Positions 681 through 64,000 of a stretch of 64,000 nucleotides of DNA are shown piece after piece (the stretch's first letter is position 1; every line of letters starts with the position of its first letter). The position numbers and the translations under genes were made by a program. Source of the stretch: a virus. Taxonomy: Duplodnaviria > Caudoviricetes. The stretch spans positions 9,788-73,787 of the IMG/VR virus record IMGVR_UViG_3300020045_001604. One strand, 5' to 3'. The notes beneath the pieces are model-generated. The model searched no databases. It worked only from the letters and a program-made list of their open reading frames with translations, and was not told the DNA's origin.

Positions 681-685
681 TATTT

Positions 686-1366: not shown

Positions 1367-1373
1367 AACTTAT

Positions 1374-4840: not shown

Positions 4841-4841
4841 A

Positions 4842-6347: not shown

Positions 6348-6348
6348 A

Positions 6349-6768: not shown

Positions 6769-6769
6769 A

Positions 6770-30096: not shown

Positions 30097-30265
30097 TGGT
30101 TATCCAGACTTATTCTGTTTCAAGGACGGAAGAACTATTTTTATAGAGTGCAAGGAGGGTGGAGACACGCTAAAGCCACTACAGAAATTTAGAATAGATG
30201 AATTAATTAAACAAGGTTTTGAGGCGTTCTGCCTACACGACACTAAAGGAAAGATATACCCATGA
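30011..30265 (+). CDS. VRR-NUC domain nuclease
   Basis: GYPDL...FIECKE...LKPLQKFRIDEL...GF. Confidence 0.8.
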   Translation: MASKHQAKVKKKYENEGWIVINTIKLSVSGYPDLFCFKDGRTIFIECKEGGDTLKPLQKFRIDELIKQGFEAFCLHDTKGKIYP

Positions 30266-41292: not shown

Positions 41293-41295
41293 AAT

Positions 41296-42735: not shown

Positions 42736-42760
42736 AATTTATTTATTTATTTATTTTTAA

Positions 42761-43597: not shown

Positions 43598-43599
43598 AA

Positions 43600-43995: not shown

Positions 43996-44017
43996 TTTTT
44001 TTACAAAGATAACAAAA

Positions 44018-44764
44018 TTATGGGTAACTTTTAAAAATACTACTCCCTACTGAAAACAATTCCACTCTTGATGTATTATCATTCTCTAGCTCAAATTGCA
44101 TATAGTATCCTGTAGCGCCGTACGACTCCGCTGTGCTGTTTTTTATACACAATATATAGTCTGATACCGAAGGAATATTTCCACCTGTTACAGTAGTATT
44201 TATAGTAATTGAATTTGCTGACAATGCTGTAATGGTACCTAACTTTAGTAATGATCCTGAGTTATTCTTGTATGCAATATCTCCAACACTTATAATACTT
44301 CCTATATTAAAAGGAAATGTAACTACAGTTGCAGAAGGAATCGAAGGGTTAACTAATGTAGTTCCTCCAATACCTTGGGCCGATCTCATTGATAAATCAA
44401 TATCATTATCATATCTTCTTATATGCGCAAAGTAGTCGCCTTCTTTTAAAGAAAAGTACGACTTATCTACAAATCCAGTTGCCATGTCTGTTATAACCTC
44501 ACACTTCCAAGAGTCATCACTATTTAATGATATGGTCTTGAAGTTTTTAACTGATCCAGATTCTATATTAAATACACCTGTTATTTTTGAATTGTATTGA
44601 ACTCCGTAGAAATTATTTCTAAGTGAATTAGAGTTGTGTCTATATAAATTTCCATTCTTAAATGTATAGAAATAAGAATTCATACCAATCATTTTTTCAG
44701 GTATAAATGAAAAGAATGATGTCCATCCTTTTGAATCTTCGCTAAATGATAATGTATATTCCAT
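44018..44764 (-). CDS. Tail structural protein (muzzle C-terminal-like)
   Basis: TLSFSE..KGWTSFFSFIPE......YTFKNG.LY.H. Confidence 0.55.
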   Translation of the reverse strand: MEYTLSFSEDSKGWTSFFSFIPEKMIGMNSYFYTFKNGNLYRHNSNSLRNNFYGVQYNSKITGVFNIESGSVKNFKTISLNSDDSWKCEVITDMATGFVDKSYFSLKEGDYFAHIRRYDNDIDLSMRSAQGIGGTTLVNPSIPSATVVTFPFNIGSIISVGDIAYKNNSGSLLKLGTITALSANSITINTTVTGGNIPSVSDYILCIKNSTAESYGATGYYMQFELENDNTSRVELFSVGSSIFKSYP

Positions 44765-44765
44765 A

Positions 44766-45152
44766 TTACGCTAAACAAGCACCTAAATTAGTTATTGAAG
44801 CTGATCCACAAGTTATTGTAGGGGTACTTTGAGCACATACATACTCAGTTACACTTGTTGAAAAACTAGCTCCAATTTGCAATATACCATTACAATCAGT
44901 GTATGAATAATTAACGTATCCTTCACATCCCGGTCCGTCACTCATAGCTACCATTTCATAGTTGAAACAATCAACAGGAGGTGTAGAACATGCTTCAATA
45001 GGAAGTAGTAAACCTTCAAATTGCTGTCTATAATTTCCTCCAAATGAATAATACCCATCAGGGGCTTTTGTTGTTAATGCAGTATCTGTCCATACAGCTG
45101 TAGCTGTTGAAAAATCCGCTGTGTCTATGTAATATGTTCCGCTAGTCGCCAT
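44766..45152 (-). CDS. Cys-rich virion accessory protein
   Basis: Seven Cys, mostly C-terminal; within the tail block. Confidence 0.55.
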   Translation of the reverse strand: MATSGTYYIDTADFSTATAVWTDTALTTKAPDGYYSFGGNYRQQFEGLLLPIEACSTPPVDCFNYEMVAMSDGPGCEGYVNYSYTDCNGILQIGASFSTSVTEYVCAQSTPTITCGSASITNLGACLA

Positions 45153-45176
45153 ATTTTTTTATTTTTTTTTATTTAT

Positions 45177-48100: not shown

Positions 48101-49544
48101 TAATTATTTGACAATTAAAAAAATCTGTTAATGAAGTTCCAGCACAGGCATTAGAATAAACTTCATGAGTAGATATAGCATCTATAAATTCCTGACTAGT
48201 GGCTAACTCATGAACACTTCCATAATCTTTTTGTATATTAAAAACAAAATCATACTCAAAACTATTTTCAGGCGCATCAGTGTAAGAAGCGTCACCTGAA
48301 TAAGAATCGTGTTGTAGATTTATATTTATTGAAATGTAAGATCCACTAGTTAATGATATACCTGATAGATCTATATTAAACTGAGAGTTATTAACTGTTT
48401 TAGGAGTTGATGAATCTATAGTGTATACTGTTCCATCGGTTAAATCAACAGGTAACTCAACGAAACCTACGTCTTCAGATATTAAACTTAAGTCGTAATC
48501 AATATCTATTGCATTTCCGTTGTTATCTTCTATATTATATCCGTCTACATAGTTACCATACATTAATCTATTACCCATTGTTGTCTGGGCTTTAGCTAAT
48601 CTAGGAACATTATCAAAAAGACGAAGCAATTCACTCTCTGTTAGAGTAGTGTATATTTTTTTATTGGTAAATGATATTTGTTGAATGGAATTATCAAACC
48701 ATCCTTCTTGATTTTTATTATACTTTTCTACAACATTTATAATGTTAGAATCAGAAAATTTAAAGCAAATATCAATACCTACTACATTCTTACTACCAGT
48801 ATTGAAATTAATATTAACCGAATTGAATATATTTTCCATTCCGGCATTTTCAAATGTAGAATAATCTATACTAAAATTACCAGGTTCAAAGGCTATTTCA
48901 CTAAACTGAGAAAGAGCGCTATACTCTCCATCCTTGTACTTATATCTATAAGCAAATGATATAAACTTATCAGTTATATAGTTCTCTTCGTCTGGAACAA
49001 ATGCAAGTGTAATATCAGGAGCTGATGATGGAGGAGCAACTATCACAGATATATCACTCTCATCAATTTGATCTATTCCAGCTATTGGCTCGGGATAGTT
49101 TCTGGTTACATTTATTTTTCTTGGAGGATTTAAATTATCAGTCCAAAACAATAAATTATCAATTAAGTTTATACCAGTAACCAAGTACTCTGAATCGAAG
49201 TTAAGCACATCCTCAGATACAACGTGATACTTTAATAATTTCTTATCAGTATTAAATGACACAACCATATCTACGGTAGGAGATGCTACAAGCCAGTATA
49301 TGGTCTCGTTAGACCCATCCTCATATGCTCCGATACAGGTAGCGTCTACAAGAGGAGATCCATTATACTGCAAGGTAGTTAATTTTATATTACCCTTAGT
49401 ATTCTCTACAGCACCTATACTATTGTTCTCAGTAGATCCTATTCTGATATTTAACGCATCAATGTACTCTCCAGCAGGGACTACACGCTCGTCAAAATCT
49501 TTATTCATTCTACCGGCAATGAAATTTACATCAGCGTTTGCCAT
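45177..49544 (-). CDS. Tail stabilisation/muzzle protein (crAss-like, P22 gp10-like position)
   Basis: NFIAGRMNKDFDER..P.GEY.DALNIRI; LFWTDN.NPPRKIN; FAYRYKY.DGE.SA.S.FS. Confidence 0.7.
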   Translation of the reverse strand: MANADVNFIAGRMNKDFDERVVPAGEYIDALNIRIGSTENNSIGAVENTKGNIKLTTLQYNGSPLVDATCIGAYEDGSNETIYWLVASPTVDMVVSFNTDKKLLKYHVVSEDVLNFDSEYLVTGINLIDNLLFWTDNLNPPRKINVTRNYPEPIAGIDQIDESDISVIVAPPSSAPDITLAFVPDEENYITDKFISFAYRYKYKDGEYSALSQFSEIAFEPGNFSIDYSTFENAGMENIFNSVNINFNTGSKNVVGIDICFKFSDSNIINVVEKYNKNQEGWFDNSIQQISFTNKKIYTTLTESELLRLFDNVPRLAKAQTTMGNRLMYGNYVDGYNIEDNNGNAIDIDYDLSLISEDVGFVELPVDLTDGTVYTIDSSTPKTVNNSQFNIDLSGISLTSGSYISININLQHDSYSGDASYTDAPENSFEYDFVFNIQKDYGSVHELATSQEFIDAISTHEVYSNACAGTSLTDFFNCQIITKSGWNEVGSGILNIDGSFVISSSLGSDVIGIQIPALKFSFETSPGIFVYAYEYLSSAIISSSFSELGAKQSLHSNRDYEVAIVYMDEYGRSSTALVDTNNTVFVPAYNSDKKNYIRVNVNSLAPSWATKYKFVVKPSKSQYQVVYSNIYFQEDSGFTWFKLEGDNRSKVQENSTLIVKADSNGVLRNLVKTKVLALEAKGKDFIEGNKNAAEKDIIEPAGLYMKLKPSNFSANYTENSFIDEGEVSEGGSYANLSYPCYIDNPLFGDPGELEFMPYDVPAGSLININFKVTRASRGSDCGERTYTFDKSFTASQDYESLFAFIIGDHIDLTSGNSTGGDTTVNENYFKDTITSPYTGDIPAIPGTNQYEFQEDTTNGRLFFVMKSGTPNCGGVDRRVSRVFCHIQVQRAESIMVFETEAAEANGETYFEGSESFNIIDGYHQGNVINQSISSPFATVDLNFFDCFTFGNGVESYKIGDSLTGAPFYLGSRVTAVSQEDFKEAHRYAGITYSGIYNEETNVNKLNEFNLALANFKDCEKSFGPINILHGRKTDVLTLQEDKISYVLAGKNLLSDAAGGGAITSVPEVLGTQISRIEEFGISSDAASFAAWGEDIYFTDTKRTSVINLKGGSTQADALVPISKLGMNGWFRSEFKDKVNYQKLGGYDPYLKEYVLSITDNKLPTPIDVLECGFTISQDTANNELLFNLEFGNVIGEASFDYNFENGSANVEVSYDGIVVINEVVSGAGTLTFDKSKINPTFATVTITPDEATYILISNCTVADPITVIRVVINSPSNEGETIHNNYNWTLDGYTSPTNIDLVLLESDGLSLYDSNTNQPSVGVIPAIGSTIKVQSEKYITDTFNFDPLANSFKYLVSNTLYTDLDIDILRPLLTEATPIVNPVTGKYQASFVYNNPSGYQYLYLVWDLTNAYSVDLCYDATDRVAACELCGDVPHYAIELCYDATDSALACDCNV

Positions 49545-49549
49545 ATATC

Positions 49550-50467
49550 TTACTTAATCCATTTATCACGACCTCTCATATTCATCAATAATCTACCTGG
49601 ATGAATATTACTCAATCTTATTTTTGCATTTCTTAGAAGGGCTGTTTTATCCTTCTTAGCTCTGTTAACTACGTACTCTTGTACGCCAACTTTTGAGTTT
49701 AGTATAGCATACTTGATGTACGCATATATAAACTCTTCGGCAAGTTTATTTATACTAACCTTGGAGTCGTCACCATTCTGCATTCCGTCTGAAATGTATT
49801 CTAAAATACATAGCTCTCCGGCCATTCCAGAACCAAAATTAATAACACCTGAAGCTTTATCTATTCTATATGTTGGATTTATATTAGCTGTTTCGGTATT
49901 TAAACCATAGTTAGCTCCGATAGAATAGTCGAAGTACCAGTTCTGATCTATATTAATACCCTCTCTACCAGCGTATAAGCCACTACCAGGATACATAGTC
50001 TTTTGTTGATTAGTAACCCTGTCATAATCTAAAATAGAAGTACCCTCAAGTACATTTCCATCCTGATCAAATAATACTCTACAGTTATTATCCTGTAAGT
50101 AACTATTACTATAATTTGTTTGAATATTTTCAGTAAGCGGTCGTAATACACCATCTTTATATAATGATATTCTAACGTAGTTTACGTAGTCGTTAGGTAA
50201 TATAAACTTAAGGTCGTCACAGATACTGATTTCTAGAACCTTAATCTCCTTAAGAGCGTCGTAGTTTATTTCTTGAATTCCTCTTTTTGCGTGAAATAAA
50301 ACATTATATCTCTGTACGTTGTTTATTAACTTGTCGTTACCAACATACATTAGCATAAAATTATTTACAATATCATCTAAAGATATGTACTGGTACGATC
50401 CCCAGTTTTCGTTTTCAGGTAAATTACCTGAATTCTCATAGTATTGATAACCAGTTAAGTATGCCAT
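49550..50467 (-). CDS. Tail ring / head-tail connector protein
   Basis: QYISLDDIVNNFML...LP.DYVNYVRIS; position after the head genes. Confidence 0.65.
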   Translation of the reverse strand: MAYLTGYQYYENSGNLPENENWGSYQYISLDDIVNNFMLMYVGNDKLINNVQRYNVLFHAKRGIQEINYDALKEIKVLEISICDDLKFILPNDYVNYVRISLYKDGVLRPLTENIQTNYSNSYLQDNNCRVLFDQDGNVLEGTSILDYDRVTNQQKTMYPGSGLYAGREGINIDQNWYFDYSIGANYGLNTETANINPTYRIDKASGVINFGSGMAGELCILEYISDGMQNGDDSKVSINKLAEEFIYAYIKYAILNSKVGVQEYVVNRAKKDKTALLRNAKIRLSNIHPGRLLMNMRGRDKWIK

Positions 50468-50469
50468 TA

Positions 50470-51159
50470 TTATCCTTGAGTTTGTTGATTCTTAACTTCT
50501 TCACTTGTTCCGAAAGAGAAAACATCTCCCTCTCTAATAGATATACCAGCAAACTGAAGTATCTTAGCTGTTAGTAAAGGCTCGTCTGACAAAGGCAATT
50601 CGAAGTCCTGGTAGTCAGATGCCGATTGATTAAATAGCGGCTCTCCTCCTGATAACGAAGTATACGTCCACTTAGGATCTCTAGGGTATCTAATGTACTG
50701 AGTACTAACGTTTGATGCTATTGTTGTTGGATATACCTTAATACTATCCCCTTCTAAAACATACGCTGGATAAAGTATTGACGGAGCCGTTAAATTAGAA
50801 GAAAGTAGGTTTAGTATCTTATCTTGTGATACCCTATCCACCTCTTTTGATCCGTATCTTACAGTATTCAGATAGTAAAAGTCGCTTGGTAAATTAAATA
50901 CCGGACTTGAAAATGTTAGTGAAGCTGTTGAAGATAGGCTATCAATAACCTCTTCTACGTTCTTAACTATATCTGCATATCCACTTCCAGACTGTCTAGC
51001 GTTCTGCTTTAGTATCCATGTATTGTACTGGTAGAAGTAGTCTTCAAATATGTCTAACTGCGCTTGCTTAGCGTACAAGTTAAAATCATCTGGAGTAATA
51101 TACCCAAAATTATTCTTGTTAGCTACAGACAATACAGTATTTCTTACTGAGTTTATCAT
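50470..51159 (-). CDS. Tail ring / tubular protein (true start 51159, MINSV)
   Basis: NK...GYITP..FN.YA.QAQLDIFE; LPSDFYYL; Y.R.P.DP.W. Confidence 0.65.
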   Translation of the reverse strand: MINSVRNTVLSVANKNNFGYITPDDFNLYAKQAQLDIFEDYFYQYNTWILKQNARQSGSGYADIVKNVEEVIDSLSSTASLTFSSPVFNLPSDFYYLNTVRYGSKEVDRVSQDKILNLLSSNLTAPSILYPAYVLEGDSIKVYPTTIASNVSTQYIRYPRDPKWTYTSLSGGEPLFNQSASDYQDFELPLSDEPLLTAKILQFAGISIREGDVFSFGTSEEVKNQQTQG

Positions 51160-51175
51160 TCTTAAAAACTTTTTA

Positions 51176-51183
51176 CAAAGATA
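51176..51183 (-). promoter_or_regulatory. -7 box TATCTTTG, just downstream of a terminator hairpin (about 51192-51214)
   Basis: Matches TAnnTTTG. Confidence 0.55.
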
Positions 51184-51237
51184 ATAAAAAAAAGCGCCCT
51201 GTAAAAGAGCGCCTTTAAACATAAAAAGAAAAGTAAT

Positions 51238-51978
51238 TTACTCGATTTTATTCTCAAGTAATCTTAACACTTCAATACCTTCATCTGTCTGTAGGTAAGA
51301 AGCTAATATATAAATATGATTTTCCCCGAAAGGTACCGTCAATAATTTTTTCTTGTTTTGTGGAAGATTAAAGTAGATATCTCTACCTTTATTCTTTAAC
51401 TTTAATAAGTCATACTCAAAGAATTTAGCACATGTGTTACGTAACTGTAACATTGGATCATTCAACATCTCTAAGAACGACATTGGATAATTTCTTGCAT
51501 AAACAAATACGTCACGTTTTAATTCAGCAGTAGACATTTTATCAATTTTAGATCCTAATAGAACTCTAGCTACAGCCTCTAAAGAGTCGATATCTAAATC
51601 TCTCGCTGCAATTTGAGCATCTAATTCACTTGTTAATTTTTCAATATCAGATGAAGCGTCCTTTTCAGTGTTTACTTCTTCAAATACTTGGCCATTACCA
51701 GGGTGTAGTTCTAAAAAATATTGTAGTACTGGATTTGTTTTTGATACTTTTAATGCACCGTCTACAAATACAATAGGTTCTAAAATAGCGTTACCATCCT
51801 GTTCGTCTTCGAACGGGCTCTTTTGGTTAACTGCATATCTTAAAGGTCTGTTTGATTTTCCGTCGAAGTGTAGTAACGGAGATCTACGTGTGTTTCTTGA
51901 TGCTAACATGTAAGATAGCGGAGTGTTTTTTTTCTTAAGTACGTACATCTTGTCTGTACTTGAAATTTGATTTGCCAT
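51238..51978 (-). CDS. Conserved virion protein downstream of the major capsid gene
   Basis: Position; RPLRYA.NQKSPF.DEQ pattern. Confidence 0.6.
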   Translation of the reverse strand: MANQISSTDKMYVLKKKNTPLSYMLASRNTRRSPLLHFDGKSNRPLRYAVNQKSPFEDEQDGNAILEPIVFVDGALKVSKTNPVLQYFLELHPGNGQVFEEVNTEKDASSDIEKLTSELDAQIAARDLDIDSLEAVARVLLGSKIDKMSTAELKRDVFVYARNYPMSFLEMLNDPMLQLRNTCAKFFEYDLLKLKNKGRDIYFNLPQNKKKLLTVPFGENHIYILASYLQTDEGIEVLRLLENKIE

Positions 51979-52007
51979 TTGATAAGATTTTAAATTTAAA
52001 AAAAATA

Positions 52008-52029
52008 ACCAGGGCTGTTACACCCTGGT
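52008..52029 (-). terminator. Terminator after the major capsid gene
   Basis: accaggg-tgtaacag-ccctggt then a T tract on the minus strand. Confidence 0.7.
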
Positions 52030-52046
52030 ATATTGTTAACTATTTT

Positions 52047-53447
52047 CTAGTTCTCGAACAAGAAGAAGTTGTTAGCACCTAAAGTACATAAAGCTCTTTC
52101 TGACAAGAAGTGAACTTCCATAGCATCTAAGCTAGAAGTTTGTGCTCCACCAGCAGAACCAGTAATCCAAGTTTTGTAACGTCTGTCTTCAGTTTCAGAA
52201 GCTCTATAACGAACGTGTAAGAATGGACGTTTAGCGTTTTTACCAAGTACTTGATCGTAAACAGTAGTAGATCCAGCAGGAACTAATACACCATTGATAG
52301 CACCTCCAACAACTCCACCTCTAAGTGTAGCGTCGTTTAAGTATTTCCAGTCAGTTTTGTAGAAATCGTAACCTCTACGGAATCCTGTAAATCCTAAGTT
52401 TAATGCCATTTCTTTATCGTTGTCGAACAATCCGTAAGATGTTCCACCAGCTCCGTAAGAGTTTTGAGCAGCCAACATATCGTCGATATCAAAAGAGAAT
52501 TGACGGTTGATGAACAATACGTTCTCTTCGATAGCTCCTTGCTTATCCAAACGTTGGATGATAGCATCAAAATCAGATAAAGCAGTTGGGTTACCACCTG
52601 ACCATACGTTACCTCTTTGTCCTACAGCGTAGAATAAACCTTCTGATCCTTTGTTTCCAAAAGCAGTATTAGCTACAGCTCCAGAGTTAGCCTCAGCAGG
52701 AACAGCTTCGATCATAGACATTTCTAAGTAATCTTCGAAACGCAAACGAGTTTCGTGCTCAGATTTAATGTACCATAAGTATCCAGTAGCACCATTTTCA
52801 GTAGTTACTTCAACCCATCCGATTTGAGCCATGTCAGAACCAGAAACAGCGTATTTCTCTTTGATGATGATTGGGCTGTTTTCGAAGATATCGTCTTGAG
52901 CCTCTAAAGATTCAGTTTGACCTTCAGTTCCTTTTTTGAATTCAGAACCATAAACAAAAGCAGTAACAGTTGCAGTAGCAGCGAAAGACTGTCCAGCAGC
53001 TTCGTAGTAAGCTACGTCAAAAGTACCAGCAGTATAATCAACAGAAGTGATGATTGCTTTGTTTGAGTTAGCAGCAGCAGCGTTATCTGATAAGAAAACT
53101 GTTTGCCCTGGTTTGAAAGCGATAGAACCTGTTAAAGCATCACTTACTGTAATTGTAGCAGTATCTCCACCTACAGCTGCGTCAGAAGCACAGTCAATGT
53201 ATTTAGTGTGAAGACGACCTTGCTCTGCCCATTTGATAAGGTCTGAGTTAGACGGCATTTCAGCTCCTACTGCTCTTAAGAAAGATGCAACAGAACGATT
53301 TCCGTAACGCTCGAATTCTTTCTCGTAAGTATCAGGAAGATACTGATTCAAGAAGTCGAAATTTGTAATGTAGTTAGTGCTTAAAGTTTGTCTTGTAGCA
53401 CTTGGTTGTAATGCAAACCCTGGGGTTGCTTGTACTGATCCAGCCAT
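52047..53447 (-). CDS. Major capsid protein
   Basis: 466 aa after portal and scaffold, followed by a terminator; strongly biased codons; QYLPD.YE.EFERYGNR..., W.EQGRLH. Confidence 0.85.
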   Translation of the reverse strand: MAGSVQATPGFALQPSATRQTLSTNYITNFDFLNQYLPDTYEKEFERYGNRSVASFLRAVGAEMPSNSDLIKWAEQGRLHTKYIDCASDAAVGGDTATITVSDALTGSIAFKPGQTVFLSDNAAAANSNKAIITSVDYTAGTFDVAYYEAAGQSFAATATVTAFVYGSEFKKGTEGQTESLEAQDDIFENSPIIIKEKYAVSGSDMAQIGWVEVTTENGATGYLWYIKSEHETRLRFEDYLEMSMIEAVPAEANSGAVANTAFGNKGSEGLFYAVGQRGNVWSGGNPTALSDFDAIIQRLDKQGAIEENVLFINRQFSFDIDDMLAAQNSYGAGGTSYGLFDNDKEMALNLGFTGFRRGYDFYKTDWKYLNDATLRGGVVGGAINGVLVPAGSTTVYDQVLGKNAKRPFLHVRYRASETEDRRYKTWITGSAGGAQTSSLDAMEVHFLSERALCTLGANNFFLFEN

Positions 53448-53460
53448 TTTGTTTTAGTTT

Positions 53461-54564
53461 TTAATTGTTTCTATTACTTTTTATTTTTAGTCCTCTTCCG
53501 CTATCTCCATCAGATGCGACAACTTTAAATCCAGACTGAGCAATTGATTGTGGAGAGTTTCTCATCTCCATATCTATATTCTTAATTCTTTTGGTGTTAT
53601 CTAATAACGCCTCTGCTCTACCTTGTTCATAAAAGAACTTAGCAACTTTTTCTGGATTCATAGCGGCAGCTAATGAACGATGGTAACCAACATGGTCTGA
53701 AATTAATCCGTTTTCATCTAAATACTTAGATATAAAATTGGTAACGTCAGATTGTGCCTTCTTAATCTCTGCAACATCTCCGGGTAAAAACTTAATTGTC
53801 TTATCTCCTACATTGAAATCAAAACCTTTGAATTCATCAGAGAAAAGTTCTTCAGTCTTCTTTTGGAAGTATTGAGACTTCTTAAGATTCTCTTCTTGTT
53901 GACTAGTGGAATCTTGAACATATTTCTTGTAAGCATTGTAAGTTTCCTTTTCGTCATCCGAAACCAATCCACCTTTTGACTCAAGAGGCGTCTTATAAGT
54001 TTCTTTGTACTCATCAAAAAACTTCTTAGCTTTAGCAAGCTCTTTTTTCTTAGCGATTTCCTTTTTCTTGATATCCTTAGGATCATCAAACTCTTCATCG
54101 TAAGCAAACTTATCTTCGATCATATATTGAATATCATCTCTGTCTAAGTCCTCTTCTGTTTGAGAGTAGTACTCAACTAATAAATCATCCGGATCCATAT
54201 CATCAAAGTTTCTGTTTAGTTTAACAAAATCTTCAATTCCACGTCCAGTTTCTTTTTTGTATTTAAAATACGCAGCTACGTCTTCTGGTAAGTCCTCTTT
54301 CTTTTCCTCTCTTTCCGCAAAAAGATCGTTGATAGAGTTTACTTCTTTTCCGTATCTGTTCTTAATATATGAAAGAACGTCATTATCTTCTAGCTCTGCC
54401 TTTACTGGCTCTGCTGGTAATTCTACTTCAGTCTCGTTTTGAACTTCTACATGTTCTGGTTCAGCAATACTCTCTTCATGCTTAGCCAATAACTCTTGTT
54501 CAACTTCCTGTACTGATTTTTGTTCGGCGACACCCAAGTCCCTTACAGTGAAAGTGTTTTCCAT
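53461..54564 (-). CDS. Capsid scaffolding protein
   Basis: Acidic, coiled; between portal and capsid; TAACTTTG box at 54581-54588. Confidence 0.7.
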   Translation of the reverse strand: MENTFTVRDLGVAEQKSVQEVEQELLAKHEESIAEPEHVEVQNETEVELPAEPVKAELEDNDVLSYIKNRYGKEVNSINDLFAEREEKKEDLPEDVAAYFKYKKETGRGIEDFVKLNRNFDDMDPDDLLVEYYSQTEEDLDRDDIQYMIEDKFAYDEEFDDPKDIKKKEIAKKKELAKAKKFFDEYKETYKTPLESKGGLVSDDEKETYNAYKKYVQDSTSQQEENLKKSQYFQKKTEELFSDEFKGFDFNVGDKTIKFLPGDVAEIKKAQSDVTNFISKYLDENGLISDHVGYHRSLAAAMNPEKVAKFFYEQGRAEALLDNTKRIKNIDMEMRNSPQSIAQSGFKVVASDGDSGRGLKIKSNRNN

Positions 54565-54606
54565 TTGATTTAATTTTTTGCAAAGTTACTTAATTATAAT
54601 TTTATA

Positions 54607-57051
54607 CTATCTAGGCTCGAATTCAGCTAAATCAAACCCATCTAAACTATCCTCTGTAGACTCAAAGTTCATAGGAGGAAGGTTATTTTTTCTTTGATCG
54701 ATAAGCTTAGATTGTTGTGTATTCTGTAAGCTTATACGCTTATCTTTTGCTTCTTCTTTTAATTGCTCTTTAGTTTTGGTAGTTTCAAATTCAGCTCCTT
54801 TAAGCTGCATCTGCATTTGGAATTCCATCTGCATAAGCTCCATTTTCAATTGAGCCTCGCTCTTCATCTTCTCAATTTCATAAGCAACTTCTGCCTGCTT
54901 AATCTGCATTTTAGACTGAGTCTCAGCCTGTATATTTTGCATTGCTGTTTGAGCTGCCATTTGCTGTGACTGCATTTGAATCTGCCCTTGCATTTGTTGC
55001 TTGGCTTGTTCGTTCTTTTGCAGTTGCTCTTCTTTTTTCTTTCTCTTAAGTTTAAGCAACTGATTAGCTAGCTTAAGATTTCTCATCTCTCTAATATCAA
55101 TCGCGTCCTCTAAGTAAATAGAATCACGAGATAACGCCAAACTAATATTTTGTTCTAACTGAGCCTTTTCTTCTTCGTCAGGAGATACTTCTATAAAGAT
55201 TCCAAAGTCATAGATGTATAGATCCTTAATCTCGTCTAATATACCTACGTTATATTTACCAATTTGATTGATAAACTCTTCTTTAAAATCAGAGTATTCT
55301 AAAATATCAGCTACTCTGTATGATATAGCTTCAGCTAATGATTTAGTAACAAATAAACTAGACTCTAGTATGTGTCTTGTAGCTGTATTTGAATTAAGAG
55401 CAGCTAACTTTTGAACACCTACTAATGAGTTAGGATCAGGATTCGATCCGTCTCTAGCCTCGTTTAATCCTGTTACGTCTCTAATCATGCTTAGGTAATG
55501 ATTATAACTAGCTACTAAACTAGATATTTTACCTTGTCCACTATTAGAGTTAAGTTCTTGAATTGGAACTCTAGCATTGTTGAATTCTCCATCTCCTGTG
55601 TAACTTCTACCAATTACACTACCCGTCTGGAAGTATAATCTCAATGCGTCTTCAGGATTGTATGCTGCCCCGTTACCTAAGTCAACCTCGTTAAGTCCGT
55701 CAGCGTCAATGAATACACCGTCAGGAACTACTTTAGCAATAACTTGTTGCAACTTCAAGTGTGTCATCTGAATTAAATCAGCAAAAGGAATCATTCTGCG
55801 AACCAATGATTCTTTTACGCCTTTATACATTCTTGGTGAGCAAGCTACATAATTAGGCAAAGCGTGTTGAACCGAAGATTGTGGGCGAACCATGTTTTTA
55901 GATTCTTCCCATTTCAAAATAATGCTACTTCCCAATACCATTATTCCATCATACCATACATCTATTGTTTTTTCAACCTTTTCATAGCCTCCTTCTTCCA
56001 TCATTTCAATAGACGGATTAAAGGTATCATCTTTCTTTGACATCCTTGTATTTCCGTTGTCGGTAATCTTCCTTTTATAAACTATTTTTTTGGTTGACTT
56101 ATAGTTAAAATAAAGCAATGACATCGTTTCATCGCGATACATTGAGTTATTATAATAGTTGTTTAGATTGTAGTAGTCATACCATGCCTGTGATTGCATG
56201 GCTACTTGTTTAATTTCTTCTTTGGTTATATCAGGTTTTATTTTATATAGTTCTGTTAATGGAAGGGTTTTAATCTCTCCAAAATAAAAACAATCCCTAT
56301 ACATTGGGTCTTCTGTATAAGAACTAATCCAATATTCAGGGTCAACATAAGACAAAACAACACCTGCACCTGGCTGAAACTCATGCTTTGCTACTCCAAC
56401 CCCTAAAGTAGTTTGGTCATAATCTACCCTTTTACGAATATCTGACCAATGGTTTTCTTCAAATATTGTATTTATAGCCTCTTCTTCTGCGATTTCTACG
56501 GCAGGTTTGAAGTTAAGTTGCATATACAAAGAAAGTTCTTCATCGGTATTAGGAAGTTCATCAGGATTCATAACAAAAGGATTAACCCCTGTTAGTTCGT
56601 GAACCTGATTAAGAACATCTTTGGCTACCATTTGACCTTCTATCATATCCTGATACTTGCTTCGCTTTGCTTGAGACATAGCATCAATAGCCGTTGCCTT
56701 TACTTTAAAAAGCCTGTCAGACATTCCATTTACTACTATATCAACAAATTTTGGAAGTATAGGCACAGGTGTCCAATCCAAATTTAAGTGAGATATATCA
56801 CCATCAACGGCTAATTCGTTTTTATATTTTTGAATGGGTTGCTCTCCTCTGGCATAAAGTCGTAATCTTCGGTATTCATCTAATTGACTATAATAACGAC
56901 ATGATGTCCCTTGACGATAGAACCAATCGTATTGGATGGCCGTTCCAATACTTAGCCCAAACTTTTCTGTTTTTTTCTCTGAATCAGGGACTAATTCAGT
57001 TGGGAATGGCATTTCAGGTATTAATACCTTTGGGATTTCGTCTTTGTTCAT
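54607..57051 (-). CDS. Portal protein (crAss-like type)
   Basis: LNLDWTPVPILPKFVDIVVNG motif; Gln-rich C-terminus; follows terminase. Confidence 0.85.
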   Translation of the reverse strand: MNKDEIPKVLIPEMPFPTELVPDSEKKTEKFGLSIGTAIQYDWFYRQGTSCRYYSQLDEYRRLRLYARGEQPIQKYKNELAVDGDISHLNLDWTPVPILPKFVDIVVNGMSDRLFKVKATAIDAMSQAKRSKYQDMIEGQMVAKDVLNQVHELTGVNPFVMNPDELPNTDEELSLYMQLNFKPAVEIAEEEAINTIFEENHWSDIRKRVDYDQTTLGVGVAKHEFQPGAGVVLSYVDPEYWISSYTEDPMYRDCFYFGEIKTLPLTELYKIKPDITKEEIKQVAMQSQAWYDYYNLNNYYNNSMYRDETMSLLYFNYKSTKKIVYKRKITDNGNTRMSKKDDTFNPSIEMMEEGGYEKVEKTIDVWYDGIMVLGSSIILKWEESKNMVRPQSSVQHALPNYVACSPRMYKGVKESLVRRMIPFADLIQMTHLKLQQVIAKVVPDGVFIDADGLNEVDLGNGAAYNPEDALRLYFQTGSVIGRSYTGDGEFNNARVPIQELNSNSGQGKISSLVASYNHYLSMIRDVTGLNEARDGSNPDPNSLVGVQKLAALNSNTATRHILESSLFVTKSLAEAISYRVADILEYSDFKEEFINQIGKYNVGILDEIKDLYIYDFGIFIEVSPDEEEKAQLEQNISLALSRDSIYLEDAIDIREMRNLKLANQLLKLKRKKKEEQLQKNEQAKQQMQGQIQMQSQQMAAQTAMQNIQAETQSKMQIKQAEVAYEIEKMKSEAQLKMELMQMEFQMQMQLKGAEFETTKTKEQLKEEAKDKRISLQNTQQSKLIDQRKNNLPPMNFESTEDSLDGFDLAEFEPR

Positions 57052-59285
57052 CTTAATATAGTGCTTTGAAAACCGTTATTGTCGTATCGTGCAATACTTA
57101 TGCTTATTTTATCTTGTTTTATTTCGGGTTGATAAAGGTTTTTCTGATTCGCCATTATCGCAAACCCTGAACTTATCGAAGCATCAAACTTTTCCCTGTC
57201 ATTTATATTAAATCCTGACCAATCTTCCAATGTTCTGTTAAATAACATTGAACCTATTTCTCCACCTGTACGGTATGTTTCTTGTGTATCAAATCCTATA
57301 TACTTTTCTATATAGGTTTGAATTGCTGTTGCGTGTGATTGTAAAACATCATCAGACGAACTTGGTATTCCCCCTAATTGCTTTTCGGTAACAGTAAGTT
57401 TTGCGTATGGCTTGTCGGGGCGATTCATAGAAAAAGGTCTGTATCCACTATTTTTAAAGTGATATAAAAGCCTTGTCCTATTACTTTCTATAAGTATTGG
57501 CATACTATAAAAGTGACAAGCCATCAATACTTCCTCAAAAAATATTTCTGCTGTTTGCGGTCTTGCGATATACTCTAAGAAAAAGCTATTTGTAGGGGCT
57601 TCATCAAAATGAAACTTGGTTAATCCGTGTAAAGAACCATTTGAGCCGCGACCTCCAACTACTGCATTTATATCGTACGGGTCACAGGCAAAACACCCTA
57701 AATGTTCATTTTGTGGATAAAATAAACCATTCTTTCTTGTTACTTTATTTTGCATCCCTGCTTTTGGTAGCCAACTTACTAAGAATCTGCCGTGTTTATC
57801 AGGTGTCCAAATGACCTTTGAAAAACGTACTCCATCTTCCCAATGAAAACTTCCTCTCGTTAAATGATGTTCCATAATAAGAGAATCATTATACGATATT
57901 TGGTCGTAGATTTTAGTTAGGTTAAATATAGACATTTGAGATTCGTCCCTGAAAGCATGGCTATATGTCCTTGGAAACTGCCTGTAAAACTCATTAAGTC
58001 CGTCAGGGTCATTTTTTAATCCTTCTACTTCTGCCTCCCAATAGTCTATTGCACCATTTTTTATCCATTTACCATCAATCCCCATAATAGGCTCGGAGGG
58101 TTTTCTTAAAACAGGCATACCGTATCGGTCAATAAAACCTTCCATATTCCACTCCATAGGAATAAACAGAGAATACAGGCCAGATTTAGTTTGTCCGTTT
58201 GCATTACGCTTAGTTACATCCGATTCGGATACCATTTTTTTAAACCCTGAACCTCCCTTTTTTTGGGCGTTTACAGTAGAACCCATACGGCACTTACCGA
58301 TTATCTTGCTTCCTATTCGTAAACAGGTTTTATGGATTCTCCAAACATTAATAATGTTTGCAGGGGCTAAAAGCTTACCTGCTTCATCAATAGATAAGTA
58401 CTTTAGTTTTTCCCCATCAAAGGCATTATCATCAGAACTACGATAACTTATAGATGTGTTTAGTCCTTCTGAACTTACATCAGAAGCAACAAACATATTT
58501 TTCTTTGTTATTTTAGTCGCAGGTACAGCATAGGATAAAACCGTTTTAGGCTTATCCATACCTTCCATTATTGGTTTAAAATAGAAAGGAAGATTAGTAT
58601 TTATAGGAACAACTTTTCGGGTAAACATTCCTTTAACATCTTCTAAGGTTTTAGAAAGTAATCCTATTTGTGAATCAGAAGCCAATGTCCCTATTTCTAT
58701 TGCATCTGTTGAAGCCTCAAATGAATGGCCTGAACGTCTGATTTTCGTATAGATTTGACCAAAACATCTTTCATCGGCAACACAAGCCTCCCAATGAATA
58801 TATTTTATACGGTTAGCTTCTCTAAAGTCAGGATACCCAACATCTATTTTAGAAGCCGTTAAATAGAACCAATGCGAACCTGTTAAGTATGTTGAAACTC
58901 CATTGTTTTTAAACCAAAAACCATACTTCCGATATTCAAATTGCTTTTCAATATAGGGTGTCCATTTGGATTTAAAAGTAGAAGGCATCTCATTCCATTG
59001 GTAAATAGATTTAATTCTCAATAGTTCACTTGCAGGGGCTTCTCTTTCCCAATATTGTTCTGACTTTTTATAACTTCTTTCAAATACTTCATCTTCCTCT
59101 AAAGGCAATGCAATCATCAATCCTTCGATAAGATATATTTCTCCAATTTGACCTGTCTTTGAAATTACCACTAAATCCCACTTTTCATTAAATCCATACT
59201 CCCATTTCTTAGCCTTGTTTAATTTGGCTATTTCATCTTTGGGGATGTAGTCATTAATGATTTTATATAGTGGTTTTTCGTTCAT
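57048..59285 (-). CDS. terL: Terminase large subunit
   Basis: KIRRSG.SF, DEAGK, GSTVN ATPase motifs; ACDPYD RNase H-like nuclease; D..ISSG. Confidence 0.9.
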   Translation of the reverse strand: MNEKPLYKIINDYIPKDEIAKLNKAKKWEYGFNEKWDLVVISKTGQIGEIYLIEGLMIALPLEEDEVFERSYKKSEQYWEREAPASELLRIKSIYQWNEMPSTFKSKWTPYIEKQFEYRKYGFWFKNNGVSTYLTGSHWFYLTASKIDVGYPDFREANRIKYIHWEACVADERCFGQIYTKIRRSGHSFEASTDAIEIGTLASDSQIGLLSKTLEDVKGMFTRKVVPINTNLPFYFKPIMEGMDKPKTVLSYAVPATKITKKNMFVASDVSSEGLNTSISYRSSDDNAFDGEKLKYLSIDEAGKLLAPANIINVWRIHKTCLRIGSKIIGKCRMGSTVNAQKKGGSGFKKMVSESDVTKRNANGQTKSGLYSLFIPMEWNMEGFIDRYGMPVLRKPSEPIMGIDGKWIKNGAIDYWEAEVEGLKNDPDGLNEFYRQFPRTYSHAFRDESQMSIFNLTKIYDQISYNDSLIMEHHLTRGSFHWEDGVRFSKVIWTPDKHGRFLVSWLPKAGMQNKVTRKNGLFYPQNEHLGCFACDPYDINAVVGGRGSNGSLHGLTKFHFDEAPTNSFFLEYIARPQTAEIFFEEVLMACHFYSMPILIESNRTRLLYHFKNSGYRPFSMNRPDKPYAKLTVTEKQLGGIPSSSDDVLQSHATAIQTYIEKYIGFDTQETYRTGGEIGSMLFNRTLEDWSGFNINDREKFDASISSGFAIMANQKNLYQPEIKQDKISISIARYDNNGFQSTILR

Positions 59286-59581
59286 TATTTAGCGTTCTTT
59301 TCAGCAAATCCAATAGAAGGTGTTTCTGCACCTTTCCCGTCTTGTAATTGCGTTTGCTCTGTATCTATTCTGGCAATCATTTCAAGAGCATCCATCATTG
59401 CTAATTTTTTAGCCATTACTGCATTTTTTAATCTATCTGCTGAAATATCTGTTGACGCTTCCCCCTCCTTGTCTCCTGAAATTATAGGCTCTTTAAGAAC
59501 TTTCACAAGTTCATCTACTCCAATTTTTGCAGCATCTATAATTTCCTGCTTATAATCTTCAGTGGTTTTTATTTCACTCAT
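59285..59581 (-). CDS. Putative terminase small subunit
   Basis: Helical 98 aa directly upstream of terL, TAATG-coupled. Confidence 0.5.
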   Translation of the reverse strand: MSEIKTTEDYKQEIIDAAKIGVDELVKVLKEPIISGDKEGEASTDISADRLKNAVMAKKLAMMDALEMIARIDTEQTQLQDGKGAETPSIGFAEKNAK

Positions 59582-60129
59582 ATTTTCGATACAATTGCGT
59601 GGTCGTACACTCGATATAATAATTCACCGTCTATTTTAAACTCGTATTCTGATTCAGGTTTGAAGATAACTCTATCTCCTTTATTCACTCCGTTCTTTTG
59701 TAGTGTACTATTTACAAACTTCATTTCACCGATTAAAGGCAAATATTCAGTTATCATGTTCGGTGATTTAATTGGTTTTACAAAACAATATCTGTCATGA
59801 CATTTCCAATCTCCTTCATTCCCATAAAGATAAAATAAGTCTTCGCCTACAAAGAATTGCATATCTCTAAAATGAGTTGACATACTTCGTCTTTTGCCGT
59901 CTGTATCACCATAGATTTTGAAAACATTATGATGAACGATTAGAATGTCTCCTTGTTTAATATCTCCTTTATAGCCGATTGGTGTTTCTAAAACTTTCGC
60001 TAAACGGTTAGCAACGGTATGGTCTTCCTCTGATGTCGAAGTTACAAAGTCCGCACCTCCAATTTTAACGATATTATCATACCGTCTGCCGTTATAAGGG
60101 GTAACTAAGAATTTATCAGGACTCTTCAT
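59578..60129 (-). CDS. GroES-fold-like protein (apparently duplicated domain)
   Basis: GDI..GD.L.VHHN and NKGDRVIF...SEYEF.IDGE.LYRV patterns. Confidence 0.5.
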   Translation of the reverse strand: MKSPDKFLVTPYNGRRYDNIVKIGGADFVTSTSEEDHTVANRLAKVLETPIGYKGDIKQGDILIVHHNVFKIYGDTDGKRRSMSTHFRDMQFFVGEDLFYLYGNEGDWKCHDRYCFVKPIKSPNMITEYLPLIGEMKFVNSTLQKNGVNKGDRVIFKPESEYEFKIDGELLYRVYDHAIVSKI

Positions 60130-60376
60130 AATCTATGTAGTATTCAATACTAATGGGAATTTGTTTTGTAAACTCTTTCCACAGTAACACTTCTTTATTT
60201 TTCCCCTCAATATACACTACAATATTTCCGCTTACTTCCTCTTGCTGAATTGAAACTATGGAATACTCATCATTCAAAACAGTCTGTCCTGTTTTATAAG
60301 TCATTCCTGTTTTATAGTCTAATCCAGTACATATTTTTCGTATAATTGAGTTCGGTTTTTGCACTATTTTCAACAA
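60116..60376 (-). CDS. Hypothetical protein, first gene of the packaging operon
   Basis: ORF track; GTG/TTG-type start. Confidence 0.6.
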   Translation of the reverse strand: MLKIVQKPNSIIRKICTGLDYKTGMTYKTGQTVLNDEYSIVSIQQEEVSGNIVVYIEGKNKEVLLWKEFTKQIPISIEYYIDYEES

Positions 60377-60464
60377 AAATAGAAACTATAAATCAAATAG
60401 TTATAAGATATTTTAAAATAAATTTGCATATATGTATAACAATAATGTATCTTTGTAAAACAAT

Positions 60465-60635
60465 ATGGCGAAAGAGATTATTGCATTTAGAATAGACCCT
60501 GCATTAAGGAAGCGATTAATAAAAATTGCTGATAAACAAAACAGGAATATTTCTAATATGATAGAAACTTTAATTCGTCAAGGAATAACTAAAAGTGAAA
60601 ACAAAGAATCCGATAGTAACAAGAACCAAAGTTGA
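60465..60635 (+). CDS. Ribbon-helix-helix (Arc/CopG-like) regulator, 56 aa (not in ORF track)
   Basis: MAKEIIAFRIDPALRKRLIKIADKQNRNISNMIETLIRQGI; TATCTTTG box at 60448-60455. Confidence 0.75.
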   Translation: MAKEIIAFRIDPALRKRLIKIADKQNRNISNMIETLIRQGITKSENKESDSNKNQS

Positions 60636-60730
60636 AAATATTAATCTTCAATTAATAGAAGAATATTTTAAAAAACAGATTCAATTACAAATCGGGGACA
60701 TAGAAACTAAATTAAGCGAGCATCAGTAAT

Positions 60731-60961
60731 ATGAAAAAAACAATTATAGCAGGAGTTGTATCTATTATACTTTTTATAAGTAGCCTTTACGTCCTTAATA
60801 ATATTTTAGTTAAAGAGGAAAATAAATATAAGGAGCATATGGGAGATGTTTTTATTTTAGAAAAAGATACACTTACTGTTACCGATTATTCTATATTAGA
60901 GGAAAATTTTACATTGTCTAATGGTAAAAAAGTTAATAAATCATTAATAATTAAAAAATGA
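60731..60961 (+). CDS. Membrane-anchored hypothetical protein
   Basis: N-terminal TM helix. Confidence 0.6.
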   Translation: MKKTIIAGVVSIILFISSLYVLNNILVKEENKYKEHMGDVFILEKDTLTVTDYSILEENFTLSNGKKVNKSLIIKK

Positions 60962-61188
60962 AAACAATAAAATTAGGAGAAATTAAGACCGTAGTCAACG
61001 ACAAGCGAAAGTTCGGCTCAAACGTAAATTACTACGCAACCTATATTAAATTTAAAGGAGATACTTGTGCAGTTCTTTTTACACTTGATGAATTAAAAAC
61101 GGCTATCAGTCGCAGTCAGGTTAATTTAGAAGATTTACCAAAGTTGAAAAAATCGTGGTTTCAAATGTTTTTAGATTGGTTTAAATAG
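60958..61188 (+). CDS. Hypothetical protein
   Basis: ORF track. Confidence 0.6.
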   Translation: MKTIKLGEIKTVVNDKRKFGSNVNYYATYIKFKGDTCAVLFTLDELKTAISRSQVNLEDLPKLKKSWFQMFLDWFK

Positions 61189-61826
61189 TGTTAATAAGTC
61201 TTTTGCATCCATCACGTTCCAGACCTGATAAATCCTTTCAGACTTATTCCGAATGGATAGCCTTATCTTCGGGTGAAATTAAGATTGAACATATCCCGTC
61301 ATTGGATAAATCAGACCCGAAATTACACGAATACAAGTTTAAAAACTCTATCATAAATAATAATACTTGTGTAGTTGAAGCTGCTAATTGTGCCGCCAAA
61401 GAATCCAAAGGTGATATAATATTATATCTCAGCGACGACTTCAAATGTCCTCAAAATTGGGATAAATTGATTGTGGAAAAGTTTGACGATATGACAATGC
61501 CAATGCTATTAAGGGTTGATGATTGCTTGCAAAGAATGGAAGCGGATGTAGTCACAATACCAATTATTAACAGGGAACTCTATAAAAAATTAGGATATTT
61601 TTTTAATCCCGACTTTAAATCTATGTTTGTTGACCAGCACTTATATCACGTTTGTAAAAACAATCATTGGGTACGAAGTGCTGCTGAATTAAAATTTCCT
61701 CACGAACACTATTGTAATGGAAAAGCAACCAAAGATGAAACCTATACTCGTTCAGAGGCTCATTGGGATTCAGGCAAAGCAATGTATCAAAAATATAAAA
61801 ACGCAGGATTTCCAATAAGATTATGA
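61188..61826 (+). CDS. GT-A fold (GT2-like) glycosyltransferase
   Basis: SLLHPSR.RP...A.N......GDII.YLSDD...W; F.SMFVD. Confidence 0.75.
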   Translation: MLISLLHPSRSRPDKSFQTYSEWIALSSGEIKIEHIPSLDKSDPKLHEYKFKNSIINNNTCVVEAANCAAKESKGDIILYLSDDFKCPQNWDKLIVEKFDDMTMPMLLRVDDCLQRMEADVVTIPIINRELYKKLGYFFNPDFKSMFVDQHLYHVCKNNHWVRSAAELKFPHEHYCNGKATKDETYTRSEAHWDSGKAMYQKYKNAGFPIRL

Positions 61827-62404
61827 AAAAATTATCAATACTTATACCATATACCAAAGACCGTAAAGATATGCTTGATGACTTGGTGGTTTCCCTTTGG
61901 TTGTCTTGTTCTCCCGAAAATGTTGATGATGTAGAAATATTAACCGATTCAAGGGAGCAACCTGTAAGTGTAGGTACAAAGCGTAATTCATTATTAGAAC
62001 GTGCAACAGGAGAATATGTGGCGTTTTTCGATTCGGACGATAAACCTTGCAATGATTATATTGATTTGCTTTTAAAGGCTATTGAATACAAGAAACCCGA
62101 TTGTTGTTCTTTGACGGGAATTATAACTATTGATGGTGGTAAGCCTGAAATATTTGAACATTCCATAAAATACAAGGCTTGGAAAACTAACGAACAAGCC
62201 AAGGAAGATGAAGTAAAATATGAAAGATACCCCAATCATTTGTCGTGTATTAAGTCATCAATAGCCAAACAATTTAAGTTCCCCGATAAAAACTTTGCTG
62301 AAGATAAAGCGTGGTCTGATTTAGTTTATCAAAGCGGACTTTTGAAAACCGAAGCATACATATCAGATATTTTATACTATTACACATACATTTCAAAAAA
62401 ATAA
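61823..62404 (+). CDS. GT2 glycosyltransferase
   Basis: LSILIP...R...VGTKRN.LLE.ATGEYVAFFDSDD. Confidence 0.85.
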   Translation: MKKLSILIPYTKDRKDMLDDLVVSLWLSCSPENVDDVEILTDSREQPVSVGTKRNSLLERATGEYVAFFDSDDKPCNDYIDLLLKAIEYKKPDCCSLTGIITIDGGKPEIFEHSIKYKAWKTNEQAKEDEVKYERYPNHLSCIKSSIAKQFKFPDKNFAEDKAWSDLVYQSGLLKTEAYISDILYYYTYISKK

Positions 62405-62530
62405 TGTCAGAAAACCAAGATACACCCGTTTTAAAAAAGGCTATTTCTTTTTCACTTTTTGGTTACGGAAAGCCCGATACACCTAATTGTTTTAGCCCTG
62501 TTTCATATTTAAGAGGTTTGTTAATGGCTT
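62404..62530 (+). pseudogene. Truncated 5' fragment of a glycan-related gene (41 codons)
   Basis: MSENQDTPVLKKAISFSLFGYGKPDTPNCFSPVSYLRGLLMA stop; TAATG-coupled to GT2; runs head-on into the minus-strand gene. Confidence 0.55.
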
Positions 62531-63157
62531 AACCCTATCTACTTCTTGATAGTTTATGTCATGGTCAAACTCACGATTAGCCATTAAGTGTGGGTGAAAA
62601 CTAATATAAAGAATAGGCTTGTGTTCTTTAAGAAAATCAATCATGGCCGGTATAACAAATTCCTCACCACCCTCAATATCCATTTTTACGAAGTCAACCT
62701 TTTCAATATCCTGTCGTTCTAATAAATCTTCGACTGTAACTGAACTAACAGATATACTTCCGTTATTATCTAATCTTGAACCTGAATGTCCAAATATTAA
62801 AGGGTTATAATGTTGTCCTGTTATTTTAGTTATCCCTGATTTATCCGAAATAGCAAAAGGCAAAACAATAACATTTTGTAAATTATTGGCTTCGATATTT
62901 TTAATACAGTTATAAAAAGCATGAGGGTCACACTCTAACCCATAAACCATTTTAACTTTATGTGCTGCATATAAAACGGTATGGCCTTCAAATGTTCCCA
63001 AATCAAGCATAGTCATTTCGGGAGTTAATAAAGTGGCAAAAACTTTAAATGTTTCTGATTCCCATATTCCACCGAAATAACTGTCTGTCCACCAACTTAA
63101 ATCAACATTGGTAGATTCTATTACTATCGGTATTCCGTTTTTTATTCCCCTAACCAT
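62492..63157 (-). CDS. FkbM-family SAM-dependent methyltransferase (C-terminus possibly artificial)
   Basis: MLDLGTFEG.T..YAA, GLECDP, VKMDIEGGE. Confidence 0.85.
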   Translation of the reverse strand: MVRGIKNGIPIVIESTNVDLSWWTDSYFGGIWESETFKVFATLLTPEMTMLDLGTFEGHTVLYAAHKVKMVYGLECDPHAFYNCIKNIEANNLQNVIVLPFAISDKSGITKITGQHYNPLIFGHSGSRLDNNGSISVSSVTVEDLLERQDIEKVDFVKMDIEGGEEFVIPAMIDFLKEHKPILYISFHPHLMANREFDHDINYQEVDRVKPLTNLLNMKQG

Positions 63158-63723
63158 GCTTTTACTTTATCTAATCCAAATGCCCAATGATGGAGATACC
63201 AAAGATTTCTTTTTGGGTCATATTTGTTATGTTCTAAACTTCTCCACCCGTCCTCAAATTTTATTAATTCAAATCCGAACATCTTACATAAATCTTCTGT
63301 GTCTTTATTCCATTTGTTAAATGGTGGTATAAAAATGCGAGAATCCACAAGACAACAACTTGCCATTATACTCATATCCTGACACTCCTTATCTAATAAC
63401 CTGTGGTCAACATGAAACAACCCATGAGAAGCCCTTTCTACATATTCAGGTATTTCAGGAATGCCCATTTTTTTAACTTCGTAAAAACCCTTATGTGCAG
63501 ATAATGCGGAAAAAATCTTTGGGAATACCCTTTGTTGATTATCGCTTGGAAACTTTGTCATATCAAAGACCAACGGACTTATCCCATAAATAATCCTACA
63601 ATCAGGGAAACGGGTCTTTAAATAAAAGGCAATATCATTTACTTCGTTCATTACAGAATTTACAGAAATATCATCGAAGCGAAAAACTACGTTTGGTGAG
63701 TTATAATTGTAAATACTATCCAT
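63142..63723 (-). CDS. NodB/polysaccharide-deacetylase-like (DUF2334-type) protein
   Basis: VFRFDDIS, ASHGLFH.DH, FIPPFNKWN. Confidence 0.65.
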   Translation of the reverse strand: MDSIYNYNSPNVVFRFDDISVNSVMNEVNDIAFYLKTRFPDCRIIYGISPLVFDMTKFPSDNQQRVFPKIFSALSAHKGFYEVKKMGIPEIPEYVERASHGLFHVDHRLLDKECQDMSIMASCCLVDSRIFIPPFNKWNKDTEDLCKMFGFELIKFEDGWRSLEHNKYDPKRNLWYLHHWAFGLDKVKAWLGE

Positions 63724-64000
63724 GCTTGTATTTAGAATAAAAATCTTCTACATAGGCTGACATCCATTCGGGAACAGAACCTAAAACACTTTCTATTGAC
63801 CTTTTAATCATTTTCCACTTTTCAGGAGAAGCTGGGTTGTTCGATTCGCAATGTATATCCCACTTGTCAGGTATGTTGTCATTCCAAGAGTACTCATGAG
63901 TAATAGGGTCAACTTTGATAGCGGCTCTATCAATCCTTCCTTTTGGTAATCCATTAACTAATCCACGTTCAATAAAAGTAAATTTGCTTTTATCTTTTAA
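63716..64000 (-). CDS. 3' end of a partial gene, probably glycosyltransferase-related
   Basis: Open frame from the window edge: ...GRIDRAA...WDIHC...YVEDFYSKYKHG stop; overlaps the next ATG. Confidence 0.6.
   Translation of the reverse strand, partial: LKDKSKFTFIERGLVNGLPKGRIDRAAIKVDPITHEYSWNDNIPDKWDIHCESNNPASPEKWKMIKRSIESVLGSVPEWMSAYVEDFYSKYKHG

Follow-up and report, generated by a model that had tools for sequence, protein, structure and literature searches.

A probable assembly chimera of three podophages at an abrupt loss of GATC and CTAG sites

Why should a viral contig that is rich in GATC and CTAG cease to carry either site part-way through a portal gene? The stretch of DNA analysed here (64,000 nt, hereafter the window) forms the final part of one IMG/VR record of 73,787 nt, and the anomalous tail is the 3' end of that record. 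The analysis points to an answer that lies in assembly: the record is very probably a chimera of three related ~63-66-kb Flavobacteriia podophages, whose relatives, as judged from sequence, are the Flavobacterium 'elemo' phages, rather than a natural mosaic genome.

Site counts and the position of the switch

Exact k-mer counts over the whole 64,000 nt returned 180 GATC and 195 CTAG, with the final GATC at 55445, the final CTAG at 55571 and none of either in 55572-64000. The same disappearance, over ~8.4 kb, had been seen by eye in an earlier sequence-only reading of the DNA, which judged that tens of each site would be expected by chance. Both statements hold: the rate in the rest of the window predicts 27.3 GATC and 29.6 CTAG for the final 8.4 kb, while a second-order Markov model of the region itself predicts 24.8 and 15.8 (probability of observing zero, 1e-13 to 1e-7, and about 1e-12 for each site at the rate elsewhere). 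Elsewhere in the contig the longest gap free of GATC/CTAG is 1.9-2.0 kb, and the frequency of the two sites does not return to normal anywhere right of 55.6 kb.

Other palindromes are scarce in the same tail. GCGC does not occur, and CCGG (1 observed, 10.9 expected), AGCT (6, with 21 expected), TCGA (10, with 21 expected) and ACGT (9, with 18 expected) are all low, GGCC being likewise depleted; hence 4-base palindromes are depleted in general. The GC content is similar left and right of the switch, and the tetranucleotide profile of the last 8.2 kb (r = 0.906) falls at the low edge of the normal range, the minimum for other 8.2-kb windows being 0.901. As this correlation is only borderline, the anomaly is mainly a palindrome signal with a contribution from some other words, and the global tetranucleotide signature was rejected as a discriminator.

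The similar GC content and the borderline correlation would suit a single genome in which a local mutational or selective regime purged GATC and CTAG from the packaging and glycan region only. Such a regime has next to no chance of being correct and can be regarded as already refuted: the tail is about 65% identical in nucleotide sequence to the copy of those genes that genome X (see below) carries in the same contig, and identity to an independent record of X, G001, falls from 100% to about 65% within 30 nt.

The sequence-only reading had placed the switch inside the portal ORF with the reading frame kept. This is borne out by the 814-aa hybrid portal ORF (Table 1), and the true sequence breakpoint can be refined to window 55,768-55,797. 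The breakpoint lies 200-330 nt right of the last GATC and CTAG because the intervening X-type stretch happens to have no site.

Three pieces and two packaging-gene sets in one record

The contig consists of three pieces, termed V (contig 1-2568), X (contig 2569-65568) and Y (window 55,798-64,000). Each of its ends carries a full portal gene and a large terminase (TerL) gene, and the contig thereby holds two portals (811 and 814 aa) and two TerL genes (748 and 745 aa). The second up/portal/TerL/GroES-like set lies within the first 7.1 kb of the contig (locus L001), outside the window and on the minus strand. The two packaging-gene sets share about 65% nucleotide identity. Circular wrap-around of one genome was rejected, as the contig ends are only about 65% identical in nucleotide sequence and lack a terminal repeat. 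With 10.8 kb of V and Y DNA in addition to a full X unit, the contig reaches 73.8 kb, compared to 63.0-66.0 kb for related full-length IMG/VR records. Duplicated single-copy hallmark genes in a contig longer than its complete relatives are features expected of a chimera, whereas a natural mosaic genome should hold one packaging set within a packageable size; the contig holds two sets and 10.8 kb beyond the X unit.

Table 1 Features of the record (positions refer to the window unless marked as contig).
Feature	Coordinates	Strand	Description
up1	contig 239-1330	minus	V lineage; 41% aa identity to up2
portal1	contig 1395-3830	minus	811 aa; 61% aa identity to window portal
TerL1	contig 3831-6077	minus	748 aa; 64% aa identity to TerL2
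GroES-like gene near TerL1	contig 6333-6899	minus	50% aa identity to window counterpart (tblastn)
Window part of genome X	1-55767		collinear with G001
up2, structural gene downstream of portal	53461-54564	minus	X lineage; 367 aa; 100% identical to L006
Hybrid portal ORF	54607-57051	minus	814 aa; phrog_6547 portal, E = 1e-145
Y/X crossover zone	55768-55797	minus	portal codons RMIPFADLIQ; contains AGAATGATTCCTTTTGC
Y fragment	55798-64000		to contig end; zero GATC, CTAG, GCGC
TerL2, large terminase	57048-59285	minus	Y lineage; 745 aa; phrog_6681, E = 2e-153
GroES-like protein	59578-60129	minus	Y lineage; 183 aa; phrog_13932; 50%-identical counterpart adjoining TerL1
Two family-2 glycosyltransferase genes	61188-61826, 61823-62404	plus	Y lineage; phrog_14945, phrog_14775; PF00535
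FkbM-family methyltransferase	62492-63157	minus	Y lineage; PF05050, E = 2e-11

The X unit measures 62,999 nt, exactly one complete circular turn, and this central part of the contig follows the gene order of the independent record G001/L006 (64,053 nt, CheckV 100% complete) collinearly around the entire circle. Over the 20 kb from window 35791 to 55790, identity to G001 is 99%. Identity of L006/G001 to the contig is 95-100% (60-nt windows) from 6087 down to ~2568 and about 65% thereafter; against the window copy it is about 65% down to ~55,798 and then 100%. An identical motif bounds X at its two ends (contig 2569 and 65568), which in G001 meet at position 37529. Relatives were collected by an IMG/VR search with the window portal, from which 80 loci were kept. 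About 20 of these have a portal C-part 95-100% identical to that of the window portal. In the same X-clade loci, the portal N-part is 92-97% identical to that of portal1 by an approximate split and 100% identical when the split is made at the junction, and TerL is 95-100% identical to TerL1; the long contigs among them measure 63.0-66.0 kb. The density of GATC and CTAG in the X part of the window is about 3.3-3.4 per kb.

Certain local features of X were also observed. The block at contig 7.7-14.1 kb (window 1-4340) is missing from G001, which is 92-100% identical to X otherwise and has about 3.2 kb of other sequence (29.2-32.4 kb) at that place; identity in the flanks falls to 78-89%. The block contains a 694-aa plus-strand ORF, a 210-aa ORF and part of a 1035-aa repeat-rich fibre ORF, and the difference looks like a natural module swap. 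The 1035-aa ORF (1733-4840, minus) contains ~1.4 kb of degenerate repeats at 2914-4322, spaced at multiples of 9 nt; these are of the GTxCCx type on the plus strand, hence giving Gly/Ser/Thr-rich triplets in the protein, and hold many of the GATC and CTAG sites of the window. The extreme ends of G001 (63937-64051 and 1-119) match window 28471-28585 and 30141-30259 in an orientation opposite to the rest, which may reflect artefactual ends in G001 or small inverted elements close to its physical ends.

Piece V comprises a portal C-part, up1 and the start of the next structural gene. It is 88-100% identical (50-nt windows) to the natural contig L162, as opposed to 48-80% to X; right of the V/X junction the pattern is reversed. 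The segments of the record are near-identical to different independent assemblies (98-100% for X against G001/L006, 88-100% for V against L162) and the switches are completed within <=30 nt, as would be seen in a chimera. V has 12 GATC and 4 CTAG in 2.6 kb. The possibility that V and Y belong to the same phage, with X inserted in Y, was considered and rejected: V is GATC-rich, the TerL of L162 is only 63% identical to TerL2 in nucleotide sequence, and the portal C-parts of natural Y phages are 52% identical to that of V.

The Y fragment is about 65% identical to X in nucleotide sequence. By its gene content, the window as a whole belongs to a podophage with the Flavobacterium 'elemo' phages and MW202828 as relatives (about 66% nucleotide identity). 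No close DNA relative of Y was found in INPHARED phages, IMG/VR or JGI metagenome contigs, the best TerL2 relatives reaching 68% amino acid identity in IMG/VR and 66% in JGI metagenome contigs. Of the two glycosyltransferase ORFs, the second scores 26.8 bits against PF00535 (Pfam cut-off 23.3) and the first 21.4, below the cut-off. A phage DNA methylase was rejected as the source of the site pattern, the sole methyltransferase of Y being of the FkbM (non-DNA) type, with no match to a DNA-methylase family in the fragment. The contig encoding one natural portal cluster of the Y lineage (P0004) measures 72,561 nt and so exceeds the X-clade genomes (63-66 kb), which would mean either a greater genome size in the Y lineage or a second composite contig.

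Hybrid portals and the two joins

The window portal is a hybrid, with residues about 1-418 from lineage Y and about 429-814 from lineage X. Its N-part is 99% identical to the natural Y portal cluster P0002 and 63% to L006, while its C-part is 100% identical to L006 and 58% to P0002. This supports the sequence-only reading in its proposal of a separate lineage, distinct from that of the remaining window, as the source of the terminase, portal N-terminus and glycan module. A large protein collection contains five natural Y portal clusters (P0002-P0006, 817 aa), with identities of 87-99% to the N-part of the window portal (99% for P0002 and 94% for P0003) and 58-62% to its C-part. These clusters agree with one another in both parts and have a coherent C-part of their own.

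Maximum likelihood trees of the two portal parts place the window N-part with P0002 in the Y clade (100/100), whereas the C-part is identical to L006 and falls in the X clade. For portal1, the N-part groups in the X clade and the C-part is sister to L162 (100/100). Only the two portals of this contig change clade between the N-part and C-part trees, with relevant support of 100/97 to 100/100. Congruent trees for the two portal halves had been named by the sequence-only reading as the outcome that would speak against it; the trees are incongruent for the portals of this contig. Every natural sequence keeps its clade in both trees, and the ~20 X-clade loci and five Y clusters are congruent; hence, the incongruence is confined to this contig. 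On the side of the natural sequences, the N-part tree gives the V-like portal at L162:8000-11400 a branch of 1.3-1.6, an extreme divergence, and the L162 C-part has a branch of 0.75 inside a clade adjoining X.

The hybrid portal forms a singleton cluster (P0001), with one member from one contig, and no other protein with a Y N-part and an X C-part occurs among the matches listed in the protein-cluster search. The IMG/VR and JGI scans hold no close Y relative, and so could not reveal a Y/X junction. A hybrid junction absent from independent assemblies, as seen here with a singleton P0001 and congruent natural halves, is in keeping with a chimera.

The coding strand is Y-specific upstream of 55797, with CGC where X has AAG, and X-specific from the ATG codon at 55767-55765, which encodes Met where natural Y has Ile (by comparison with P0002). 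Between these positions lies AGAATGATTCCTTTTGC, the core common to V, X and Y within the RMIPFAD-coding stretch, and both joins fall in it. The 23-mer GTTAAGAGAATGATTCCTTTTGC is the longest exact match between the natural V-like L162 and natural X, and is the junction itself. Of the shared word, 17 nt are certain; it reaches 23 nt in the V-like/X pair and no more than 30 nt in the Y/X pair, where the Y side is known at protein level only. Thus both junctions fall within an exact word common to the source genomes, as would be expected of a chimera.

Read along the minus strand, the path of the contig starts in Y (glycan genes, GroES-like gene, TerL2, portal N-part) and crosses to X in the portal stretch that is nearly identical in all three phages (RMIPFAD, AGAATGATTCCTTTTGC). 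It then circles X exactly once (62,999 nt), passing the TerL1 and portal N-part of X itself, before re-meeting the same stretch and leaving X for V (portal C-part, up1), in which the contig ends. Such a path is expected of a k-mer graph assembler where the graphs of co-occurring relatives have a short word in common. On this reading, the loss of GATC and CTAG is the compositional signature of a different phage, Y, exposed at the seam. We infer that both joins arose during assembly rather than inside a cell. Some JGI MEGAHIT assemblies began at k = 23, which would fit. Assemblers finishing at large k usually make no join on so short a word, and a low-k step, greedy extension or chimeric library molecules must therefore be assumed.

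Virome assembly is documented to produce erroneous chimeric contigs when viruses that share similar regions occur together (Roux et al. 2017, PMC5610896). Like these, the present record has segments that match different natural genomes with abrupt switches in a shared exact word, duplicated hallmark genes and a length exceeding the genomes of its relatives. It differs in that three genomes are involved instead of two, the shared word is just 17-23 nt, and one full circular turn separates two passes through the same word.

In-frame joins at exactly homologous positions are also expected of real homologous recombination. A real recombinant, with a Y packaging and glycan module on an X backbone that was co-assembled with coexisting parental X, would explain a junction that is in frame, at a homologous position and in the longest stretch of identity. 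Module exchange is moreover common in this phage family, as illustrated by the contig 7.7-14.1 kb block that G001 lacks. Nevertheless, such a recombinant accounts for one of the two joins, and a further recombinant, of independent origin, would have to be postulated for the X-to-V join at that stretch. The 8.2 kb of Y show no junction leading back to X. Among the clusters searched, the hybrid portal occurs once, while congruent portals of X and Y are found repeatedly. The hybrid would also need to assemble and function as a portal even though each half is 58-63% identical to the natural partner of the other. Furthermore, site avoidance is lacking in X and V and complete in Y, indicating different hosts or life histories, which argues against co-infection. 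Two independent recombinations within the same ~20 nt and with three partners are much less likely than a single graph node, and it is implausible that a phage could be viable with ~10 kb of surplus DNA and two packaging sets that diverge from each other. We consider the recombinant improbable. The sequence-only reading had left the choice between homologous recombination in portal and a co-assembly chimera; the second packaging set, the full turn of X and the singleton hybrid strongly favour the chimera, and natural recombination is not upheld.

The two joins could be accommodated together if the RMIPFAD-coding portal stretch were a natural recombination hotspot, with both the Y-N/X-C and the X-N/V-C portals functional and captured along with parental X. 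We hold this to be a shade less probable again than the single recombinant. If true, it would mean that related Flavobacteriia podophages swap whole packaging modules in nature.

A contig that is the faithful copy of one molecule, either a three-phage hetero-concatemer or co-integrate from a co-infected cell or a chimera produced in library amplification by template switching at the conserved stretch, would place the joins in that molecule instead of in the assembly. Template switching, or recombination of replicating concatemers, accounts for two joins at a single conserved site as well as a graph artefact does, and the sequence offers nothing to tell a physical chimeric molecule from an in-silico join. 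However, coverage sufficient for a contig of 74 kb is not normally to be expected of a molecule that arose once, and 73.8+ kb with two packaging sets exceeds the 63-66-kb relatives and so is not a packaged genome. A single-molecule origin thus appears very unlikely.

The assembly chimera therefore stays our preferred reading. Natural tailed-phage mosaicism resembles the record in having an in-frame join at a conserved structural-gene stretch with flanks of different ancestry, but does not parallel the two packaging sets and full extra genome unit found here, the use of one site twice with three partners, or a hybrid that occurs in no independent assembly.

Restriction-site avoidance in the phage family

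The avoidance of GATC, CTAG and most other 4-base palindromes is a genuine property of lineage Y over the 8.2 kb available, these short palindromes being far below the Markov expectation of the same sequence. Among related loci, both sites are absent in, for example, L023, L029, L058-L063 and L069-L074. CTAG alone is absent in L024-L026 and L046, and GATC alone in L027, L028 and many others; in the X clade neither is absent. Four avoidance combinations are thereby observed among family clades (L022-L081, IMG/VR relatives), over loci of 5-22 kb. The pattern in the family is classical restriction-site avoidance, and the four combinations suggest repeated lineage-specific adaptation to differing host restriction systems. 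The palindrome avoidance of Y presumably reflects GATC/CTAG restriction pressure in its host. As in other phages that avoid short palindromes, Y lacks GATC, CTAG and GCGC in 8.2 kb and many relatives lack one or both of GATC and CTAG; Y differs in being known from 8.2 kb alone.

For quality control, the 73.8-kb public record, outwardly a single long phage genome, most likely corresponds to one complete 63.0-kb genome plus fragments of two other phages. The two artificial hybrid portals would mislead phylogenies, recombination analyses, host prediction based on site avoidance and estimates of genome length or completeness. An abrupt change in restriction-site content can serve as a sensitive, tool-free flag for chimeric seams of this kind. 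What is left as biology is modest and familiar in type: lineage-specific avoidance of GATC and CTAG fits varied restriction pressure across Flavobacteriia hosts.
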